64,000 nucleotides of DNA from Escherichia coli (GTDB lineage Bacteria; Pseudomonadota; Gammaproteobacteria; Enterobacterales; Enterobacteriaceae): assembly GCF_030013595.1 (NCBI RefSeq), contig NZ_CP122768.1, one strand, 5' to 3'. Within the stretch, counting starts at the first letter, position 1. Each line of letters opens with the position of its first letter. The notes under the pieces are model-generated. The model was not told the DNA's origin and did no database searches. It saw only the letters and a program-made list of their open reading frames with translations. A program made the position numbers and the translations under genes. Below are positions 9,541 through 60,989 of the stretch, piece after piece.

Positions 9541-10309
<769 letters not shown>

Positions 10310-10413
10310 ATCAGCATACTTGTCCTTAGCCTTCTGCAGTGACAGCTGGTAGTACAGCGTGCTTCTGGCCAGCCCTGCAGCCTTTAACAGGTCAGACTGG
10401 CAGTGTCCGCACC

Positions 10414-10944
10414 TCAGGCTCCGGATGACTTTCGTTTTTTCTCCAGCTCCTGGCGCTTTTTTTCCAGGAGATGCTCCTGCATGGCTTTCAGATATGCATT
10501 TTCTGCGCGAAGATAACGCAGCTCATTCTTCATCTCTTCCGGCGTCATGTTTGCCTCGTTTTCATGGGTATCATCAGAACGGGTCATGCTTTTCTCCTTC
10601 CTGCGCCTGATAAAGGCCTCATTACCAGATTTGCGGTAGCCTTTTATCCAGTTTTTAACCGTGTTGTGGCTGGGAATGTTAAACCGGGCAGCTACCCGGG
10701 GTAGAGACTCAGAATGCCCGAGAGCATAAAGAACCACGCAAAGTTTATCTTCAGGAGAATAGCTACGCTTGTGTCTGCAATCCAGTGCACGAGGACCGTG
10801 AAGAAGAAAAAGATTAATCCAGTGTGAGAGGCTGGTGTGAGAAAGTTGAAAGAGTTTTGCCGTAGAAATGATGCCTGCATGACCAGCCAGGTAATGATTT
10901 ACAGCGGCAAGTTTTACTTCAAATGAATGTTTCATAAACTGCAC
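10414..10944 (-). CDS. IS transposase OrfA (HTH plus leucine zipper)
   Basis: 176 aa; ends just after slippery heptamer A AAA AAG (+ strand T-run 10457-10463). Confidence 0.8.
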   Translation of the reverse strand: MQFMKHSFEVKLAAVNHYLAGHAGIISTAKLFQLSHTSLSHWINLFLLHGPRALDCRHKRSYSPEDKLCVVLYALGHSESLPRVAARFNIPSHNTVKNWIKGYRKSGNEAFIRRRKEKSMTRSDDTHENEANMTPEEMKNELRYLRAENAYLKAMQEHLLEKKRQELEKKRKSSGA

Positions 10945-11098: not shown

Positions 11099-13360
11099 TT
11101 ACATCTGACGGTTTTTATTGAAGTTAATCAAACTACCCGCCTTGATAATCTCGCGCTCTTCGGCCGTCAGGCTTTCCATGTAAAGCGTAATTTCCGTTAC
11201 CGGCGCATCTTCATGGATCACATAACCTTTAAACGTCGTACCCGGATTATCCAGCGCTGCTTTAATGCCAGGGATGTAAATGTAATCCCCCACTTCAAAC
11301 GTTGGTGCTTCCGCCATCTGCAGCGGTAACATCCCCCAGTTGATGACGTTAGAACGGTAGCGTTTAGTCGCGTACTCCTCGGCAATATTCGCCAGACCGC
11401 CAATCACACGCTGGCAGCTCGCCGCCTGCTCACGCGCAGAACCATCGCCTGGTTTCACCGCATAGACCATGCTGCCAATTTCAGTTTGCAGCGGATCAAT
11501 ATGCTCCTGACCAGCAATCTGCTTAATGCGCGCAAACACCTCTGTCAGCTCGCTGACATTCCCCGCCAGACGCTGATTTTCCAGCTCAGCAGTCGCTTTA
11601 CTTCTGCCAACATAACCTGGATCGCGGCGTGACAGGGTAAACTCCGCCAGACCAATCGGATTTGAACGATAAGAAGAGGTTTCACCGGAAGGGATCAGTT
11701 CGTCGGTGGTGGTCACTTCGTCGAGGATCTTCGAGCACACTTTGAGGACGATATTGTCAGTTAGCGCCCCCAATTCTGGCCAGTCTTTTATGTTCGGTCC
11801 GTAAATCAATGGTTGCTGGGTCGCCCCTTTCACAAAGCCCTGATAAACACGGTTTTTATACGGAGTTACATCGAAGGCGTACTCCGGTACGTTGTCCCAG
11901 CAATCAAGTTCGCTGGCAGAGGTTAAATAGCCACCGTTTGCCGCAGTCGCAGCGATAGAACGAGCGTCCATCAACGCCACCGCTGACATCTGCCCATTGG
12001 CTGGCTTAGAGCCTTCGCGGTTCGGGAAGTTACGCGTGGTGTGGCGAATACTCAAACCGTTGTTGATTGGCGTATCGCCCGCGCCAAAGCATGGGCCGCA
12101 GAACGCGGTTCTGATGATTGCGCCTGCGCCAATCAAATCTGCTACCACGCCTTTTTTGGCTAAATCCATAAACACCGGCTGTGATGACGGGTAAACCGCT
12201 AACGAGAAGGTGTCATTGCCACAGGATTGACCGCGCAGCGCATTCGCCGCCGCGATGACGTTTTCATAGTTACCGCCAGAACAGCCCGCGATAATCCCCT
12301 GCTGCACTTTCAGGCGACCATTTTCCACTTTATCCAGCAGCGAGAGTTTGGCTTTACCGTGCGCCACGCGTTCGGACTCAATTTCAATCTCACGCAGAAT
12401 ATCGGTCAGGTTCTGGTTCAGCGTGTCGATTTCATATACGTTGCTCGGGTGGAACGGCAGCGCAATCATTGGTTTGATGGCGCTTAAATCAACGCTGATG
12501 CAGCCATCGTAGTATGCCATCGGTTGAGGGTTAAGCTGGCAGTAATCCTGGCCGCGTCCGTGCAGCGCCAGCCAGTTATGGACTTCTTCATCGGTTTGCC
12601 AGACAGAACTTAAACAGGTCGTTTCAGTGGTCATAACGTCAACGCTGTTACGGAAATCGGTAGAGAGCGCAGCAACACCGGGACCTACGAATTCCATCAC
12701 TTTGTTTTTGACGTAGCCGTTTTTGAACACGGCACCGATGATAGCCAGCGCCACATCCTGTGGCCCCACATACGGCGCAGGCTTTCCGGTCAAATGCACC
12801 GCAACAACTCCCGGATAGTCGATATCCCATGTGTCATTAAGCAGCTGTTTTACCAACTCACCGCCACCCTCACCGACTGCCATTGTCCCTAATGCACCGT
12901 AACGGGTGTGGCTGTCTGACCCGAGGATCATTTTGCCGCCGCCTGCCATCATCTCACGCATATATTGATGGATGACCGCAATATGCGGAGGCACAAAAAT
13001 ACCGCCATAACGCTGAGCCGCCGATAAACCAAAAACATGGTCATCACCGTTAATGGTGCCGCCGACGGCGCAAAGTGAGTTATGGCAGTTGGTCAGCACA
13101 TACGGCAGCGGGAAACGTTCCATACCGGACGCTTTAGCGGTCTGTACAATACCAACAAAGGTAATATCGTGAGAGGCTAATGAATCAAACTTAATTTTAA
13201 GTTTATCCATATTTCCGGACGTATTATGAGAAGAGAGAATAGACCAGGCAATAGTGCCTTTTTTTGCTTCTTCTTTTTTAATTTCGCCGGTGAAATGTTC
13301 TTCGGCAATTATTTCGTTATTACTGGCGAGAAACACGCCTTTTTCAGATAACTTGATCAT
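11099..13360 (-). CDS. ybhJ: YbhJ, aconitase-family hydratase
   Basis: 753 aa from second Met (MIKLSEKG); aconitase family Fe-S hydratase fold. Confidence 0.85.
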
Positions 13361-13413: not shown

Positions 13414-13542
13414 ATATACTCTAAATAATTCGAGTTGCAGGAAGGCGACAAGCGAGTGAATCCCCAGGAGCTTACATAAGTAAGTGACTGGGGTGAGCGA
13501 ACGCAGACGCAGCACATGCAACTTGAAGTATGACGAGTATAT
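13414..13542. repeat. ERIC (IRU) element
   Basis: Contains GTGAATCCCCAGGAGCTTACATAAGTAAGTGACTGGGGTGAGCG; terminal ATATACTC / GAGTATAT. Confidence 0.8.
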
Positions 13543-14976
13543 TTACAGCATGTTCCAGCCGATCAGCATATTCCACCACCACACGCCGAGGGTGATATGC
13601 ACCAGGAAGGTTAATATCGTCAGTACCGCACCGACCAACCACCAGGATTTAATATCGTTGTAACCCACGCCAAAGATGACCGGACCTGCCGCGCCGCCAT
13701 AGTGAGTAACCATGCCGCCATAGGAGTTAGAGAACAACAGTGCCAGCGCGGTTAACATTAACGGTGCGCCGGAGACGTTCGCCAGCATGGCAAATACCGG
13801 TAACATAGCAACGATATAGGCACTACCGGAAGCGAAGAAATAACGAACGATGATGCTGAGGAAAATAATAACGAAGAAAGCAACGTTACCGTGACCATCA
13901 AATGCCAGGTTATTTTTAAAGACTTCAGCTAACCATTCGAAAAATTTAACTTTCGATAATAAGGAGCTTAAGCCGATAATACCGCCGTACCAGATTAAGG
14001 TATTCCATCCGCCTTTATTTTTAACCACGTCTTCCCAGGTAACGATACCCAGCAGCAGCATGGTCGCCATAACAACGATTGCCACGGTGGATTCATCAAC
14101 CCCCAGAGACTTACTGAAAATCCAGCCCAGTAGCGCCAGCACAAAGACACCGAGCAGCATTTTTTCGCGGATTTTCATCGGTCCCAGTTCGGCAAGGCCC
14201 GCTTTGGCGATGGTTTTGTTATCCACCTTCTTAATTTCTGGCGGATACATGGTGTAAATCACCAGCGGGGTGACCAGCAGCATAATGATGCCCGGCAATC
14301 CGGCTGCCAGCGCCCATCCACCCCAGCTAATTTGCAGGTGCAGAATGTCGTTGATCATTTTCAGCGCCAGAATGTTCCCCGCCATTGCGGTAAAGAACAT
14401 ATAGCTGGTGGTTTTGGTGACCATGTAAATGGACATCATCAGGTAATGTCCGACACGACGCGGACTTTTTTCCGGTTCGGACCCCAAAGCCACCGCCACG
14501 CTGTTGATGATCGGTAACACAATGCCGCCCGCACGCGCGGTGTTAGACGGTGTTGCCGGAGCCAGTACCAGATCGAGGAATACCGTAACGTAACCCAGAC
14601 CCAGCGTGGTGTTACCGATTTTACCAATCAGCAGATAGGCTATACGTTTACCTAAGCCGGTGGTCACAAATGCGGCGCTTAAGGTAAACGCCGAGAACAC
14701 CAGCCAGGTGGTACCTGAAGAGTAACCGCTTAATACGGCGGTGGTCTTAAACGCACCGTCGGATAAGTTACCGACCACCACCATTGAGGCAGCAACGGCA
14801 ATTAACAGTACGACAGGTTCCGGGAAAGGCTTGATAACCAGCCCCACAATGGCCGCCAGGTAAATACCAAAAAGCACCCACGCCAGTTCGCTTAATCCTG
14901 CCGGAGCTGGCATAAAGCCAATAATACATGGGATCGCTAATATCAGAATTAGCTTCCATAACGATTTTTTATTCAT
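13543..14976 (-). CDS. ybhI: YbhI, DASS-family anion:sodium symporter
   Basis: 477 aa polytopic membrane protein. Confidence 0.85.
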   Translation of the reverse strand: MNKKSLWKLILILAIPCIIGFMPAPAGLSELAWVLFGIYLAAIVGLVIKPFPEPVVLLIAVAASMVVVGNLSDGAFKTTAVLSGYSSGTTWLVFSAFTLSAAFVTTGLGKRIAYLLIGKIGNTTLGLGYVTVFLDLVLAPATPSNTARAGGIVLPIINSVAVALGSEPEKSPRRVGHYLMMSIYMVTKTTSYMFFTAMAGNILALKMINDILHLQISWGGWALAAGLPGIIMLLVTPLVIYTMYPPEIKKVDNKTIAKAGLAELGPMKIREKMLLGVFVLALLGWIFSKSLGVDESTVAIVVMATMLLLGIVTWEDVVKNKGGWNTLIWYGGIIGLSSLLSKVKFFEWLAEVFKNNLAFDGHGNVAFFVIIFLSIIVRYFFASGSAYIVAMLPVFAMLANVSGAPLMLTALALLFSNSYGGMVTHYGGAAGPVIFGVGYNDIKSWWLVGAVLTILTFLVHITLGVWWWNMLIGWNML

Positions 14977-34878: not shown

Positions 34879-35190
34879 AGATAGTCGAATGGTGGGGAAA
34901 AGTCACTCGAATTACGTATGAGATGCCGAATGCCACACTTTGCGTCTTATTTCTCCGACGTAAAGTTGTTTACGCAGCAAACGCGGAGTATGTCATCTGG
35001 GTTAAGAATTGAAATTGAGAGATGCCTGAATAGCAAAAAAGCGCCTTTAGGGCGCTTTTTTACATTGGTGGGTCGTGCAGGATGACTCGCTTCGCTCGCC
35101 CTTCGGGCCGTCGCCGCGAGCGGCTCCGTTGTTTCGCTGCGCTCAACTCAAACCTGCTGCAGGTTCGAATCTTTGAGTATCGCAGATAGC

Positions 35191-35218
35191 AAAAAAGCGC
35201 CTTTAGGGCGCTTTTTTA
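35191..35218 (-). terminator. Rho-independent terminator after tRNA cluster (second copy at 35033-35061)
   Basis: AAAAAAGCGCC-ttta-GGGCGCTTTTTT symmetric hairpin. Confidence 0.6.
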
Positions 35219-35221
35219 CAT

Positions 35222-35297
35222 TGGTGGGTCGTGCAGGATTCGAACCTGCGACCAATTGATTAAAAGTCAACTGCTCTACCAACTGAGCTAACGACCC
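35222..35297 (-). tRNA. lysQ: tRNA-Lys (UUU)
   Basis: Reverse complement matches tRNA-Lys including CCA end; position in cluster. Confidence 0.9.
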
Positions 35298-35330
35298 CTT
35301 GCGGGATTATGCTGCTTTAATCATTCAGGA

Positions 35331-35406
35331 TGGTGGGTCGTGCAGGATTCGAACCTGCGACCAATTGATTAAAAGTCAACTGCTCTACCAACTGAGCTAA
35401 CGACCC
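35331..35406 (-). tRNA. lysZ: tRNA-Lys (UUU)
   Basis: Identical tRNA-Lys copy. Confidence 0.9.
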
Positions 35407-35552
35407 ATACGGGTGTTACCTGAAAGATTTCTACTCGGAACCAATCTTTAAAATTGGTGGGTCGTGCAGGATGACTCGCTTCGCTCGCCCTTCGGGCCGT
35501 TGCTGGCGCAACGTTATCCTTCACGCTTAACATCTGAGTTTGATGTTAAAAT

Positions 35553-35628
35553 TGGTGGGTCGTGCAGGATTCGAACCTGCGACCAATTGATTAAAAGTCA
35601 ACTGCTCTACCAACTGAGCTAACGACCC
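35553..35628 (-). tRNA. lysY: tRNA-Lys (UUU)
   Basis: Identical tRNA-Lys copy. Confidence 0.9.
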
Positions 35629-35631
35629 GAG

Positions 35632-35707
35632 TGGTGGGTGATGACGGGATCGAACCGCCGCCCCCCTCCTTGTAAGGGAGGTGCTCTCCCAGCTGAGCTA
35701 ATCACCC
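35632..35707 (-). tRNA. valZ: tRNA-Val (UAC)
   Basis: Reverse complement matches tRNA-Val(UAC), one base variant from the other copy. Confidence 0.9.
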
Positions 35708-35758
35708 GATACTGCGCTGGATACTACAAACTACTTCCACCGAACCCACCGTAATTAG

Positions 35759-35834
35759 TGGTGGGTCGTGCAGGATTCGAACCTGCGACCAATTGATTAA
35801 AAGTCAACTGCTCTACCAACTGAGCTAACGACCC
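35759..35834 (-). tRNA. lysW: tRNA-Lys (UUU)
   Basis: Identical tRNA-Lys copy. Confidence 0.9.
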
Positions 35835-35836
35835 GG

Positions 35837-35912
35837 TGGTGGGTGATGACGGGATCGAACCGCCGACCCCCTCCTTGTAAGGGAGGTGCTCTCCCAGCTG
35901 AGCTAATCACCC
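35837..35912 (-). tRNA. valT: tRNA-Val (UAC)
   Basis: Reverse complement matches tRNA-Val(UAC). Confidence 0.9.
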
Positions 35913-36047
35913 AATACTACGCTGGATACTACAACTAACTATGTTAGTGGTGGGTCGTGCAGGATGACTCGACTTCGTCTCGCCCTTCGGGCCGTTGCTG
36001 ACGCAACGTTATCCTTCACGTTTTACTACCGCTTCCACCTTAGCGAT

Positions 36048-36123
36048 TGGTGGGTCGTGCAGGATTCGAACCTGCGACCAATTGATTAAAAGTCAACTGC
36101 TCTACCAACTGAGCTAACGACCC
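36048..36123 (-). tRNA. lysT: tRNA-Lys (UUU)
   Basis: Identical tRNA-Lys copy, first gene of cluster. Confidence 0.9.
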
Positions 36124-36287: not shown

Positions 36288-37079
36288 TTACATCGCGTTC
36301 AGACGTTTTTGCGCCTGTTTAGCGCCATCAGTACCAGGGTATTTACTGATAACCTGCTGGTATACGGCTTTCGCTTTTGCGGTGTCACCTTTGTCCTGCA
36401 TGATGACGCCGACTTTAAACATCGCATCTGCAGCCTTTGGCGACTTCGGATAGTTTTTTACTACCGAAGCAAAATAGTACGCCGCATCATCTTTTTTACC
36501 CTTGTTGTAGTTTAACTGACCCAGCCAATAATTGGCGTTTGGCAGGTAAGTTGAATCAGGGTAATTTTTGATGAAATTCTGAAATGCCACCATTGCGTCA
36601 TCCTGGCGGGATTTATCCTGCACCAGCGCAATAGCTGCATTGTAATCCGTGTTTGCATCACCGCTTTTCACCGGCGCGCCAGCATTCGCAGTACCAGCAT
36701 CAGCTGTCGGCGTCATTGATGCCGCCGCACCGCTTTGATCGCCGCTGGTTGATTGCGCCGCTGCACCACCGCTGCTGAGGCTATCGATCTGCAACAGGAT
36801 CTGCTTTTGCCGCTCCACGACCTGATTCAGTTGATACTGATTTTCCTGAATCTGACCACGCAGGGAATCAATATCGGATTGATTATCAGAGAGTTGTTGC
36901 TGGAGTTGGGTTAAAAGCTGGCTGTGAGCATTTGAAATACGCTCAAGTTGAGTGACGCGGTCTTCGACCGAGCCTGAGCCGACACTACTGATTGGTGCCT
37001 GAGCAAAAGCGGCCCAGGGGGCCGCTATACCAACCAGTAACGACAGACTCAATAGTTGATGTCTGAAGTTACTGCTCAT
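36288..37079 (-). CDS. cpoB: CpoB (YbgF), TPR-containing cell-division coordinator
   Basis: 263 aa, signal peptide, coiled coil plus TPR. Confidence 0.9.
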   Translation of the reverse strand: MSSNFRHQLLSLSLLVGIAAPWAAFAQAPISSVGSGSVEDRVTQLERISNAHSQLLTQLQQQLSDNQSDIDSLRGQIQENQYQLNQVVERQKQILLQIDSLSSGGAAAQSTSGDQSGAAASMTPTADAGTANAGAPVKSGDANTDYNAAIALVQDKSRQDDAMVAFQNFIKNYPDSTYLPNANYWLGQLNYNKGKKDDAAYYFASVVKNYPKSPKAADAMFKVGVIMQDKGDTAKAKAVYQQVISKYPGTDGAKQAQKRLNAM

Positions 37080-37088
37080 GCAATTCTC

Positions 37089-37634
<546 letters not shown>

Positions 37635-49875: not shown

Positions 49876-51321
49876 ATGGAACTTCGAAATAAGAAATTAA
49901 CCCATGACGAATTCATGACCGAGCGGCAACAGGTACTGAAAACCTGGGAAACCGGCAAGGATGTTGAAAACTTTGAAGATGGCGTTAAATACCAACAAAC
50001 CATTCCTGAGCATAAACGCTTCTCTCTTGCGCTGTTGAAAGCAGACAAGGAAGGTAAAACCCTTAGCCAACCGCGCGCAGGTGTGGCGCTGATGGACGAA
50101 CACATCGAACTACTGAAAACACTACAAGAAGAGTGCGATCTGCTGCCGAGCACTATCGATGCATATACCCGTCTGAATCGGTACGAAGAAGCGGCTGTAG
50201 GGATTAAAAAATCCATCGAAGCCGGAACCTCTAAACTGAACGGTTTGCCGGTAGTTAACCATGGCGTCGCAGCTTGCCGTCGCCTCACCGAAACCCTGCA
50301 AAAACCGCTACAGATCCGCCACGGCACGCCAGATGCGCGTCTGCTGGCTGAAATCTCAATGGCCAGCGGCTTTACCAGTTATGAAGGCGGTGGCATTTCC
50401 TACAACATTCCGTATGCCAAACGCGTAACGCTGGAAAAATCGATCCGCGACTGGCAGTACTGCGACCGTTTAATGGGGATGTATGAAGAACACGGGATCC
50501 GCATCAACCGCGAACCGTTTGGCCCACTAACGGGTACGCTGATCCCGCCGTTTATCTCGCACTCTATCGCGATAATCGAAGGCTTGCTGGCGCTGGAACA
50601 GGGTGTGAAATCTATCACCGTTGGTTATGGACAGGTCGGCAGCCTGACGCAGGATGTTGCGGCGATCCAGTCTCTGCGTGAACTTGCACACGAATATTTT
50701 CAGAGCTATGGCTATACCGACTATGAATTAAGTACCGTGTTTCACCAGTGGATGGGCGGCTTTCCGGAAGACGAATCGAAAGCGTTCGCTATTATCTCCT
50801 GGGGCGCAGCCGTCGCGGGGATGTCTGGTGCCACCAAAGTCATCACCAAAAGTCCGCACGAAGCCTGGGGCATCCCGACTGCCGCTGCCAACATTCAGGG
50901 GCTGAAAGCCTCCCGCCAGATGCTCAACATGGTCAACGAGCAGAAATTCCCGCCGTGCCCTGCGGTTGAACTGGAAATTGAACTGATTAAGAGCGAGGTT
51001 CGCGCGGTACTGAATAAAGTGTTCGAACTGGGTAATGGTGATATTGCGCGCGGTACGGTGCTGGCATTTGAAGCGGGCGTACTGGATGTGCCGTTTGCGC
51101 CAGCCGCCTGCAACGCGGGCAAAATTCTTCCGGTCCGTGACAACACCGGCGCGATACGCGTACTGGAAGCCGGAGCCGTTCCATTGCCAAAAGATATTCT
51201 CGACCTCCACCACGATTACGTTGCTGAACGCGCACGCTTTGAAGGACGCCAACCGACATTCCAGATGGTTGTAGATGACATCAATGCTGTATCCCACAGT
51301 AAATTAATAGGAAGACCATAA
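49876..51321 (+). CDS. Glutamate mutase epsilon (E) subunit (methylaspartate mutase E chain)
   Basis: 481 aa TIM-barrel mutase. Confidence 0.85.
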   Translation: MELRNKKLTHDEFMTERQQVLKTWETGKDVENFEDGVKYQQTIPEHKRFSLALLKADKEGKTLSQPRAGVALMDEHIELLKTLQEECDLLPSTIDAYTRLNRYEEAAVGIKKSIEAGTSKLNGLPVVNHGVAACRRLTETLQKPLQIRHGTPDARLLAEISMASGFTSYEGGGISYNIPYAKRVTLEKSIRDWQYCDRLMGMYEEHGIRINREPFGPLTGTLIPPFISHSIAIIEGLLALEQGVKSITVGYGQVGSLTQDVAAIQSLRELAHEYFQSYGYTDYELSTVFHQWMGGFPEDESKAFAIISWGAAVAGMSGATKVITKSPHEAWGIPTAAANIQGLKASRQMLNMVNEQKFPPCPAVELEIELIKSEVRAVLNKVFELGNGDIARGTVLAFEAGVLDVPFAPAACNAGKILPVRDNTGAIRVLEAGAVPLPKDILDLHHDYVAERARFEGRQPTFQMVVDDINAVSHSKLIGRP

Positions 51322-58096: not shown

Positions 58097-59002
58097 TTAC
58101 ATCTCCTGCGGTACAACCGATTTCGCCAGCAACCATTCACGAAATTGCTGCAAGTGCGGTGAGTCAGACTTCTCTTCCTGCCACGTCATAATAAAACGAT
58201 TACCGGTACGAATAGGCACATCACAGGGGATCACCATATCGCCACTATCCAAATCATGTTGAATAGCGAACCGTGGTAACAGCGCCACGCCGAGATTCGA
58301 GCGCACGGCGGCAATCAGCATTGAAAGCAAATCGAAACGTGGTCCGTTGTTGACCAGCGGACTGCTAACGCCAGATAAGGCAAACCACTCTTCCCAGCCA
58401 GTAATACGGGTACTTTGATGCAGAAGTGGTAACTCTGTAAGCAGTTCTGCCACTGACAGTTTTTGATCGGACATTGCAAGCAAACTGCCGCTGCATACCG
58501 GCAAAATCTCCTCATAAAAGAGATATTCTACTTCCGCCCAGGGCGCGCAAAAATTTTCGCGCATAATGACAGCATCGTACTCCCGATTAAGAAAATCGCC
58601 GTTATTAGCTAAAGAGTGAATATTAACAATAATATCGGGATGTAACTTTGTGAATTCATGTAAATTTGGGATTAACCAGTGAGTACTAAACGTAGGATTA
58701 ACGGCAAGTTCAATAACCTGAACCGTAGGCTGCCAGGTCATAATGGTATTGGTATCGCGTTCCAGCTTATTTAATGTTTCTTTTACTATCCCCAGGTAAT
58801 ACTTCCCTGCATCATTAAGAAAAATGCGTTTTTTAGAGTGTGAAAATAACGGAGTATGTAAAAATTCCTCCAGCGCACTTACTTGTCTGAATACAGCACT
58901 TTGGGTTAACGCTAACTCCTCTGCCGCTCTGGTATAGCTTTCATGACGTGCGACGACCTCAAAAGTCACCAGCTGCTCCGTTTTAGGTATTTTTCCTCGC
59001 AT
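58097..59002 (-). CDS. LysR-family transcriptional regulator
   Basis: 301 aa from MRGKIPKTEQL; HTH TQSAVFRQVSALE. Confidence 0.8.
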   Translation of the reverse strand: MRGKIPKTEQLVTFEVVARHESYTRAAEELALTQSAVFRQVSALEEFLHTPLFSHSKKRIFLNDAGKYYLGIVKETLNKLERDTNTIMTWQPTVQVIELAVNPTFSTHWLIPNLHEFTKLHPDIIVNIHSLANNGDFLNREYDAVIMRENFCAPWAEVEYLFYEEILPVCSGSLLAMSDQKLSVAELLTELPLLHQSTRITGWEEWFALSGVSSPLVNNGPRFDLLSMLIAAVRSNLGVALLPRFAIQHDLDSGDMVIPCDVPIRTGNRFIMTWQEEKSDSPHLQQFREWLLAKSVVPQEM

Positions 59003-59213
59003 AATGCCGTCCGTGAAAAAATAACAATTCAAAAATTATTTTATAAAAAACAGTAGCACTAATGAATATCATAATTCAAATAAACAAACCAGTCAGCTAT
59101 ATGTCTAACCAGGAAAATAAAGTGACAATAATCCTAAAACAGGAATTTCACCTCAGTTATCCGCATGCAATACTTTAAAGCTATTATTGCAAGAATATTA
59201 TTCATATACATGA

Positions 59214-59341
59214 ATATACTCTAAATAAGTCAAGTTGCAGGAAGGGAACAAATAATGAATTTCCAGAAGCTTACATAAGTAAGTGACCTGGGTGAGCGAA
59301 CATCGATGCAGCACATGCAACTTGAATTATGACAAGTATAC
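59214..59341. repeat. ERIC-like element, divergent copy
   Basis: Shares ...GCTTACATAAGTAAGTGAC(C)TGGGTGAGCGAAC...GCAGCACATGCAACTTGAA with ERIC at 13414-13542. Confidence 0.65.
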
Positions 59342-59591
59342 AATGATAAATTTATATACCCTATGTTATATATTATCTATGTCCGGTTAAATTGAATGAG
59401 TCATGGCCTTAAAAGACTTCACAAAAGATAATTCCTCTTTAACAATAAGCCAGATTTACCACTTGTAAAACTTGCTATCGCCACATACACTACGCGCGTT
59501 TTCTTTCCCTTTTGCTGGCTGCTGACCGGAAAGACAAAATTACCCTCGCAATACAGGGGGTTGTTTAACGTCTATATTTCAGGACAGCGTT

Positions 59592-60989
59592 ATGCATCAT
59601 CTTTCAAGGCTTGATAAAGCCTTTCTGCGCAAAGGGATCCAACTTTCCCGCGCCAACAATATTGTTTCATTATCTCGTCCATCAGGTGCCAGTGCCCGCG
59701 TACTGCTGCCGGACGAACTGCCGCTGGAAGAAAAAGCAGTAACACAACTGCTTGATTTTGCAGAAGTGAAGCTACCAGACCACCCAGGTTATGTGCGCCA
59801 GACGTGCGCGACGCCAGATTTTCATCCCGGCAATGGAGTCCCCGTTGGCGCGGTGGTGGCCTCAACGCCGGATTTAGTCATTCCCGCCGCCATCGGCACC
59901 GATATTTCTTGTGGCATGCGGCTGCTGACGACCGGATTAACACTTGAGCAAGCCGAAGCGCATAAAGACGTCATCGCTCAGCGGTTAACGCAAGTGCTAC
60001 TGCAAAATGAGCGCGATGTTCCGTTATCCGCACAGGCGTTCACCGCGCTTTTTGATGGCGGACCGGCAGATTGCGTGTCGACCTTGCCATCAGCAGGTCT
60101 CTGGACACGCACGAATATCCCCCGAATGGTACAAGAGATTGACCGCTGCATTGGGCTTAACGAGCATAACAGTCATTCGCGTTATGCCCCACCCGCCCTG
60201 CTGGCAACGGACCGCGCATTACTCCGCGATCCTTGTCTGGGTACGCCGGGTTCAGGTAATCATTTTATTGAACTTCAGGTCGTTGATAGCGTGGTTGATC
60301 GCCATGTAGCCTGGCAACAAGGGCTGAAAACAGGCGATATTGTGGTGATGATCCACAGTGGATCGCGAGATGTTGGCTTTTACGTCGGAAGACGCTGGAT
60401 GGATCGCGCCCGTGCTGAATGGCCCACCGGACATAAACATCCACAAAGCGGGTTATATGGTCTGGCAGGCGGACTGGCGGAGGAATATCTACAAGCGATA
60501 GGAATGGCGGCGCGTTACGCGTGGTTAAATCGCGTCACAATTGCCGAAATGGTGCGCGTATGTCTCGCCAATCTCTTTCATCAGGACAATTCGCATCTGG
60601 TGGTGGATGTGCCGCATAACATCATCCTTCGCGAGCATGAAATGAATATTCATCGCAAAGGTGCAACACCGGCACGAGTGGGCGATCTGGCATTAATCCC
60701 CGGTTCAATGGGCGATTATTCGTGGCTTGCAGTCGGTTGCGGCAACCCGGAGTGGCTGTGGTCATGCAGTCACGGAGCAGGACGCAGCCAGCGTCGACAG
60801 GCCATGCGCTCAAGCGCGACTGAAGAGTCAACGCTGCCGTGGCAATGCGTCACATTGCGTGAAGAACGACGTCTTGAAGAAGCGCCAGCGGCTTATAAAG
60901 ATATTGGTCCGGTTATCGAAGCCCAACAAGAAGCCGGATTAATTCAGCCAGCGGTCAGATTTCGACCGTGGTTAACGTTTAAGGCATAA
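59592..60989 (+). CDS. RtcB-family RNA ligase homolog (orphan)
   Basis: 465 aa; motifs GTDISCGMRL, GSGNHFIEL, HSGSRDVG, SHGAGRS. Confidence 0.75.
   Translation: MHHLSRLDKAFLRKGIQLSRANNIVSLSRPSGASARVLLPDELPLEEKAVTQLLDFAEVKLPDHPGYVRQTCATPDFHPGNGVPVGAVVASTPDLVIPAAIGTDISCGMRLLTTGLTLEQAEAHKDVIAQRLTQVLLQNERDVPLSAQAFTALFDGGPADCVSTLPSAGLWTRTNIPRMVQEIDRCIGLNEHNSHSRYAPPALLATDRALLRDPCLGTPGSGNHFIELQVVDSVVDRHVAWQQGLKTGDIVVMIHSGSRDVGFYVGRRWMDRARAEWPTGHKHPQSGLYGLAGGLAEEYLQAIGMAARYAWLNRVTIAEMVRVCLANLFHQDNSHLVVDVPHNIILREHEMNIHRKGATPARVGDLALIPGSMGDYSWLAVGCGNPEWLWSCSHGAGRSQRRQAMRSSATEESTLPWQCVTLREERRLEEAPAAYKDIGPVIEAQQEAGLIQPAVRFRPWLTFKA

Follow-up and report, generated by a model that had tools for sequence, protein, structure and literature searches.

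A degenerate ERIC element and a conserved leader in the spacer upstream of a solitary rtcB-like gene of Escherichia coli

Genetic organization of the LysR-RtcB junction

The window analyzed in this study is a stretch of 64,000 nucleotides of the Escherichia coli contig NZ_CP122768.1 (assembly GCF_030013595.1), and all positions refer to it unless a locus is named. It contains a gene for a LysR-family regulator (58097-59002, - strand; RefSeq CDS, Pfam HTH_1 and LysR_substrate), the last gene of a methylaspartate island, and divergent from it a solitary RtcB-family gene (59592-60989, + strand; 465 aa, Pfam RtcB 318.6 bits), hereafter the rtcB-like gene. The RefSeq gene order of the island is cydA, two hypothetical genes, glmS, glmL, glmE and the methylaspartate ammonia-lyase gene, followed by an AtuA-family gene, a DUF4387 gene, a dicarboxylate symporter gene, a class I fumarate hydratase gene, cobO, the LysR gene, the spacer, the RtcB gene and sucD. 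On the K-12 map, the island occupies the place of mngR-mngA-mngB. The nearest non-enteric relatives of the RtcB protein, with 60-67% identity, belong to Pseudomonas and Betaproteobacteria, and tblastn of the protein against plasmids returned two records only.

The spacer between the two divergent genes carries an ERIC/IRU element, copy B (59214-59341, + strand), at the point where the methylaspartate island between cydA and sucD comes to its end. The original prediction had described the spacer as an AT-rich region of 560 bp, which agrees with the 559 bp counted from the longest LysR ORF and with a GC content of 34%, as against 49.6% for the window; counted from the RefSeq LysR start at 59002, the spacer is 589 bp long. 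The second element of the window, copy A (13414-13542, + strand), is a canonical ERIC located between ybhI (stop at 13543) and ybhJ (start at 13360), and an IS1397-family (IS3-like) transposase gene adjoins ybhJ at about 9600-10940.

Elsewhere in the window, the Rfam scan located the lambda cIII thermoregulator (2440-2498), which belongs to a lambdoid prophage on the left side, and the cpoB/ybgF thermometer (37050-37188). It also gave seven tRNA hits, five of them annotated as tRNA-Lys and two as tRNA-Val, with three RtT repeats among them (35066-36123). Relative to NZ_CM149870.1, the window is offset by amounts that disagree by 78 bp when the ybhI region (13.5 kb) is compared with the LysR-RtcB region (58.7 kb), and the two sequences are therefore not perfectly collinear in between.

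Identification of copy B as a member of the ERIC family

The 19-mer common to both copies was scanned in 100,044 species-representative genomes and yielded 120 loci in about 45 species of Enterobacterales. From these, 54 full-length ERICs, representing about 45 species, were taken for the covariance model CM R1; neither window copy nor the Escherichia albertii orthologue of copy A was among them. This model placed full-length + strand matches (model positions 1-129) at exactly 13414-13542 (142.8 bits, E-value 3e-36) and 59214-59341 (88.3 bits, E-value 2.4e-21), and its scan of the window gave no third ERIC copy. Copy B is 128 bp long, with one 1-nt deletion relative to model positions 1-129.

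Pairwise alignment gave the same picture. Globally, copies A and B are identical at 109 of 129 positions (84.5%), and their local alignment score of 88 lies far beyond the 8.4 +/- 1.3 (maximum 16) obtained from 1,000 shuffles. Within the window, the core 20-mer AGCTTACATAAGTAAGTGAC, which is exact in copy B at 59268-59287, and the 19-mer GCAGCACATGCAACTTGAA are each confined to the two ERICs, with one occurrence in either, against an expectation of about zero. The claim that a second ERIC copy at 59214-59341 shares its core and flanking sequence with the copy at 13414-13542 was thereby borne out. The idea that the similarity comes from chance or low complexity, with no repeat element involved, is refuted by the local score and by the E-value of the independently built model; nothing beyond the AT-rich context speaks for it, and its probability is negligible.

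The anatomy of copy B is that of the family. Its terminal inverted-repeat arms (left, 59215-59239; right, 59316-59340; both + strand) are 25 nt long, 80% complementary and 76 nt apart, and the terminal repeats of both copies measure 25-26 nt; the right arm holds the Escherichia-type signature GCAGCACATGCAACTTGAA (59308-59326). The ERIC core GTGAATCCCCAGGAGCTTACATAAGTAAGTGACTGGGGTGAGCG is matched at 38 of 44 positions, with six mismatches, and the central core hairpin (59263-59291, + strand) is weakened in the predicted fold (CCAG..GCUUAC/GUAAGU..CUGG). By consensus the family folds into one long hairpin, and compensatory changes are seen at 19 of its 29 pairs. A BLAST search with copy B matched, at 82-85% identity, a median of six places in each E. 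coli genome.

Rearranged copies were also observed among the ERICs collected. In ERICs of several species a different conserved sequence, GACAAATCTGC...GGATTTGAACGCTGCTTGCAGCGGCCC, begins just past the core in place of the right half, and in other copies the left half is replaced by a GC-rich hairpin (L017 about 4579, L021 about 5896, L023 about 586, L041 about 4318, L043 about 4213, L046 about 5272, L058 about 4582, L086 about 7896); these half-replaced ERICs look like recurrent chimeras with another repeat family. In Kosakonia cowanii and Phytobacter massiliensis (L066 4286-4427 and L068 6035-6180), ERIC cores occur as tandem pairs at a distance of 123-127 bp.

Sequence decay and variation of copy B

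The original prediction had assigned the divergence of copy B to its left half. The copy is indeed divergent, but its differences from copy A are not confined to that half, as 11 fall in the left 64 alignment columns and nine in the right 65; divergence is heaviest in the two inner arms (59246-59258 and 59302-59306). Identity to the family consensus is 76% for copy B, compared with a median of 87% for the 54 copies, about four of which are lower. Among its 18 private changes, 12 are GC-to-AT and four AT-to-GC, a bias that fits the 33-34% GC of the surrounding spacer. Copy B would be decaying neutrally under the AT-biased mutation pressure of the spacer.

Five of the 29 consensus pairs are broken in copy B (24 formed), among them pairs 50:79 and 51:78 of the model, versus one in copy A. 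The minimum free energy of copy B RNA is -33.1 kcal/mol (z -4.0) and that of copy A -54.0 kcal/mol (z -8.6), while the opposite strand of copy B folds at -34.2 kcal/mol (z -4.5). By these predictions a long imperfect hairpin can still form in copy B DNA or in any RNA through it, although it would be much weaker than that of the canonical copy.

In a small sample of five sequences, comprising the window and the four most divergent orthologous loci, 13 of 128 ERIC positions were variable. The remainder of the spacer had 23 variable positions out of 463 (Fisher p 0.037 against the ERIC), and the RtcB CDS had 94 out of 1398. Among these five sequences there was no sign of purifying selection on copy B, which varies at least as fast as its flanks. 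Several substitutions in the orthologues strike stem positions without compensation. Some bring back the consensus base, and gene conversion by other ERIC copies, and not relaxed constraint, could account for part of the excess variation. Against the standard ERIC-PCR primers, copy B has two mismatches to ERIC2 and four to ERIC1R, and because of these mismatches it would prime poorly in ERIC-PCR typing.

Origin and distribution of copy B

Among 118 sampled ERIC copies, the right-arm signature GCAGCACATG is present only in those of E. coli and E. albertii, and in the same sample copy A is the nearest relative of copy B outside its own locus. Copy A itself is identical, flanks included, in E. 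albertii (L018). Since the signature is restricted in this way and copy A is the nearest relative, copy B looks home-grown in Escherichia and not imported with the island, as far as the 118-copy sample reaches.

The element was found in 150 of 5,426 complete E. coli genomes, six of which have no left flank, and the complete LysR-spacer-RtcB arrangement was found in 144 of the 5,426. By BLAST, orthologues of copy B with at least 95% identity are present in about 143 E. coli genomes. Over the 1.2 kb around the element, identity is 100% with E. coli HCP5S3_I2 and 99.3% with many other E. coli genomes.

The termini of copy B read A|TATAC...GTATA|C, which is compatible with a TA target site, with no empty site for comparison: flanks joined without the ERIC were sought in the 5,426 E. 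coli genomes and were absent, all 144 full matches carrying the element. For this reason insertion at this site, its target-site duplication and its timing are matters that we infer. Copy B may have arisen within Escherichia by the usual, still uncharacterized, trans-mobilization of the ERIC family into a TA site.

Mosaic structure of the spacer and deletion next to the ERIC

Comparison with other E. coli loci (L004 4304-4969 and L003 3340-4108) showed the LysR-RtcB spacer to be mosaic, its parts meeting at about 59020 and 59484. O157-type genomes match the window along the LysR gene and the 18 bp ahead of its start codon but no further, and what they have of the RtcB gene is a 3' remnant. In hut-type E. 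coli the same RtcB gene stands beside hutU, and only the last 108 bp before its ATG (59484-59591) are common with the window. The 464-bp middle segment (59020-59483), which carries the ERIC, had no homologue elsewhere in E. coli, and none in the O157-type or hut-type spacers. Because the DNA upstream of the LysR gene differs from that of the O157-type allele from 18 bp before the start codon, the LysR promoter of this arrangement must lie in the ERIC-containing segment. The LysR gene is a pseudogene in some strains: A34 has truncated forms of both it and the AtuA-family gene, and ET201 has a frameshifted LysR gene (L007 758-1483 and L009 578-1482).

A deletion of about 8.8 kb has its right end-point at 59205 in strain JNE23-011 (L002), where window position 50361 is joined to 59205, so that a truncated glmE is fused 9 bp to the left of the ERIC and the methylaspartate pathway genes from mid-glmE through LysR are lost. 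Strains A25 (L176) and JNE112863 (L177) have the same gene geometry, 390 bp separating the end of the truncated glmE from the RtcB gene. In the deletion genomes the RtcB gene is followed by mngB and not by sucD.

These junctions raise the question of whether the ERIC, as a palindromic multi-copy sequence, served as a substrate for rearrangement and promoted the mosaic junction. The closeness of the deletion end-point to the left end of the element and the patchwork of the spacer are in its favor, and ERIC-like repeats have been proposed to add plasticity in Xenorhabdus (PMC3184786). On the other hand, the glmE end-point of the deletion has no ERIC or useful microhomology, and the mosaic boundaries lie 194 and 142 bp away from the ERIC. 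The gene geometry shared by JNE23-011, A25 and JNE112863 points to one event in the three genomes, and a recurrent ERIC-associated deletion was accordingly rejected. We regard the role as a rearrangement substrate as very improbable.

Position of copy B relative to the predicted rtcB-like promoter

A sigma-70-like promoter was predicted for the rtcB-like gene at 59463-59491 (+ strand), with a -35 element TTGTAA (59463-59468), a 17-nt spacer and a -10 element TACACT (59486-59491), and transcription would start near 59498. The promoter is kept in register across four enterobacterial contexts that differ in their spacer and upstream DNA. A TTGACA/17/TAnnnT arrangement aligns with it in Pseudomonas, Chitinivorax, Burkholderia and Ralstonia, and the -10 element CTACACT is aligned in Roseateles and Eleftheria. 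A sigma-54 promoter was rejected by eye, since no GG-N10-GC match was present.

Copy B ends 121 bp upstream of this -35 element. Because the conserved promoter and leader (59463-59591) lie downstream of it, the ERIC would be outside the rtcB-like mRNA, upstream of its promoter, as judged from these comparisons. The same RtcB gene and leader occur without an ERIC beside hutU in other E. coli, and also in two more distant relatives (L131 and L132), whose proteins are 83-87% identical. In these relatives, one of which again has the gene beside hutU, only the stretch corresponding to 59484-59591 is common and no ERIC is present. The original prediction that copy B could form an mRNA stem-loop affecting the RtcB-like gene was not supported by these results: the promoter and leader are conserved downstream of the element, the gene occurs without it, and the element is under no detectable purifying selection in the five orthologous sequences.

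The ERIC could still be co-transcribed, either in a long LysR 5' UTR or in an rtcB-like transcript started further upstream, and act as an orientation-dependent mRNA stability element, in the way that Yersinia ERICs are described to modulate the stability of co-transcribed mRNAs in the accounts given by PMC2229807, PMC3184786 and PMC10969869. Both strands of copy B fold better than their shuffles (z -4.0 and -4.5), and promoter-like matches read through it in either direction: a weak + strand match at 59174-59201 would transcribe through the ERIC, and weak - strand sites lie at 59469-59442 and 59225-59197. These matches are at chance level, however, five being found in the spacer versus 2.9 +/- 1.7 in shuffled AT-rich sequence. 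The element lies between divergent genes, and there is therefore no read-through transcript from the upstream neighbor. Moreover, the conserved rtcB-like promoter is downstream of the ERIC, its stems are broken with no sign of purifying selection, and the rtcB-like gene is present in other contexts without it. Co-transcription of this kind is unlikely.

Alternatively, the ERIC could act as DNA, either by giving the LysR gene an outward-facing -35 element or by insulating the divergent promoters as a binding or bending site. A hybrid promoter-like site exists, with TTTAGA (59225-59220) and AATAAT (59202-59197); the LysR gene has lost its O157-type upstream DNA and thus needs a new promoter; and MITEs of other families carry promoters (PMC3184786). 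The hybrid site is, however, a 9/12 match in DNA of 34% GC, as expected by chance, a promoter-like site at 59096-59068 is closer to the LysR start, and the only DNA motifs described for ERICs are their inverted repeats (PMC2229807, Table 1). Action at the DNA level is quite improbable. Taken together, a role of copy B in a long LysR leader or as a promoter donor would be unlikely.

In summary, copy B is a genuine ERIC/IRU member of the Escherichia sequence type, located in the non-coding LysR-RtcB junction and probably decaying neutrally. It is most likely not regulatory and without effect on the neighboring RNA-ligase gene, and it appears to have no required role in the expression of either neighbor. 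The negative result has a practical use, in that a hairpin repeat near a gene start should not be taken for a leader structure until the promoter has been located.

A conserved leader of the rtcB-like gene

The part of the spacer that deserves follow-up, and that may matter more than the ERIC, is the leader of the rtcB-like gene (59498-59594, + strand), delimited by comparison, with about 93 nt between the predicted transcription start and the ATG. Sixteen examples of the leader and promoter in front of a solitary RtcB subfamily were compared, from Gamma- and Betaproteobacteria of at least 11 genera; the proteins are down to about 60% identical, the gene is always solitary and its neighbors are unrelated (L003 3987-4111; L131 3880-4003; L132 676-799; L133-L135 about 1375-1503; L141 5409-5508, - strand; L169-L174 about 1075-1203; L178 255-397; L179 261-403). 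In two relatives the leader is 87% and 85% identical, compared with 80% and 74% for the CDS, and third codon positions are 58% identical for L131. The DNA further upstream of the leader and promoter is unrelated between relatives.

Six elements recur in the same order. The first is a pyrimidine tract (CUUUCC, CCUUCC, CCUCC or CCUCU), and the second is GCUGCUG, which never varies and lies 75-78 nt ahead of the start codon, or further away in three expanded forms. The third is a purine tract (GGAAAGAC, GGAAGGUAC, GGAGGUAC or AGAGGUAC), followed by an apical hairpin of free sequence and by its complement, a U/C tract (GUCU..UUUC, GUACCUUUU, GUACC or GUACUUC). The last is a CAGCAGC-like run located 0-7 nt from the start codon. 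In the window (+ strand), these correspond to CUUUCC (59503-59508), GCUGCUG (59518-59524), GGAAAGAC (59528-59535), the apical hairpin (59542-59561), GUCU..UUC (59570-59580) and CAGC (59585-59588), with a Shine-Dalgarno sequence AGGA at 59581-59584 and the ATG at 59592.

When 13 representative leaders were folded singly (the other three being near-duplicates), all 13 gave the same P1-P2-P3 hairpin, with z scores from -2.4 to -6.1. RNAalifold recovered P1, P2 and P3 from seven alignable leaders. In the predicted fold, the invariant GCUGCUG would pair with the CAGCAGC-like run beside the start codon (P1), the purine tract with the downstream U/C tract (P2), and P3 would be the apical hairpin of free sequence. 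Among the 16 sequences, P2 shows apparent compensatory changes between lineages (GAC:GUC, UAC:GUA, GAG:CUC, AGG:CCU and GGU:ACC), and the apical stem covaries as well.

The 5' pyrimidine tract also co-varies with the purine tract, which suggests that the pyrimidine-purine and P2 pairings may be mutually exclusive. Duplex-energy shuffles of this alternative pairing were individually non-significant, because composition alone favors pairing between pyrimidine and purine tracts. The three-part hairpin would occlude the ribosome-binding region, and the 5' pyrimidine tract could serve as an alternative partner of the purine tract, giving an ON/OFF switch.

A second model, CM R2, seeded from seven leaders of the GAC type, recovered the unseeded L141 and, weakly, the Burkholderia leader, and missed the UAC-type and expanded leaders. 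It also gave a weak match with a large insertion inside the ybhJ CDS (12695-12798, - strand; 21.6 bits, E-value 0.001), most likely a false positive. A metagenome scan with the pattern CCTT-N5-10-GCTGCTGA-N2-3-GGAAAGAC returned 33 hits, five of them beside an RtcB gene, including one new lineage (L141); one further hit lies at a contig end, and the remainder is about the hand-estimated chance number. The leader had no Rfam 15 match in the window or in eight other species, and a text search found no published description of an rtcB-like leader. The segment 59498-59591, which is conserved along with the gene in Enterobacteriaceae, Pseudomonas and several Betaproteobacteria, may represent an undescribed class of cis-regulatory RNA for solitary RtcB-family RNA ligases, a proposal that we consider evenly balanced. 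If true, the folded leader would provide a handle on the control of RNA-repair ligases that have no RtcR.

Comparison with known systems

The ERIC/IRU/RU-1 repeats of Enterobacterales (Sharples & Lloyd 1990; Hulton, Higgins & Sharp 1991; Wilson & Sharp 2006) are known here as summarized in PMC2229807 and PMC10969869. Copy B resembles them as an imperfect palindrome of about 127 bp with TATAC...GTATA termini and a central core, in its extragenic position and multiple copies per genome, and in its significant full-length CM score. It differs from most ERICs in its 76% identity to the consensus, the six mismatches in its 44-nt core and its five broken pairs out of 29. It also lies between divergent genes at the junction of an accessory island, whereas copy A lies inside an operon (ybhI-ybhJ). 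The ERIC itself is ordinary and belongs to a repeat family described as early as 1990-91; copy B adds one more degenerate ERIC in a strain-specific spacer and is of little importance in itself.

According to the accounts of De Gregorio et al. 2005 in PMC2229807, PMC3184786 and PMC10969869, Yersinia ERICs act through RNase E to modulate the stability of the mRNAs with which they are co-transcribed: folding and ribosome passage expose an RNase E site, in an orientation-dependent manner. Copy B is of the same family and has the same long-hairpin potential in RNA. However, the Yersinia mechanism needs the element inside the transcript, beside a translated gene and in a set orientation, and the comparative evidence places copy B outside the rtcB-like transcript.

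In Rfam 15, which has no ERIC family as such, the spacer had no match at gathering level. The family RF02818 V_AS5 (Vibrio antisense RNA AS5, 129 nt), the best of those below threshold, matched copy A end to end (46.9 bits, E-value 2.9e-09) and copy B weakly over the same span (19.5 bits, E-value 0.25; 13414-13537 and 59214-59336 aligned), both far below the gathering score of 96. As the two copies match it over the same span, V_AS5 is probably a Vibrio repeat of the ERIC type. Copy A also had a partial, sub-threshold Rfam match to isrH.

The rtcB-like gene can in turn be compared with the canonical rtcBA genes. In E. coli, rtcBA is regulated by RtcR and sigma-54, and Salmonella has an rsr-yrlBA-rtcBA operon. 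Background on the regulation of rtcBA and rsr-yrlBA-rtcBA is given in PMC5175333. Like rtcBA, the gene studied here encodes an RNA ligase of the RtcB family, and control of its expression is to be expected. Unlike rtcBA, it is solitary, with no rtcA or rtcR nearby, and it appears to be served by a sigma-70-like promoter and a folded leader, from which the ERIC stands apart.
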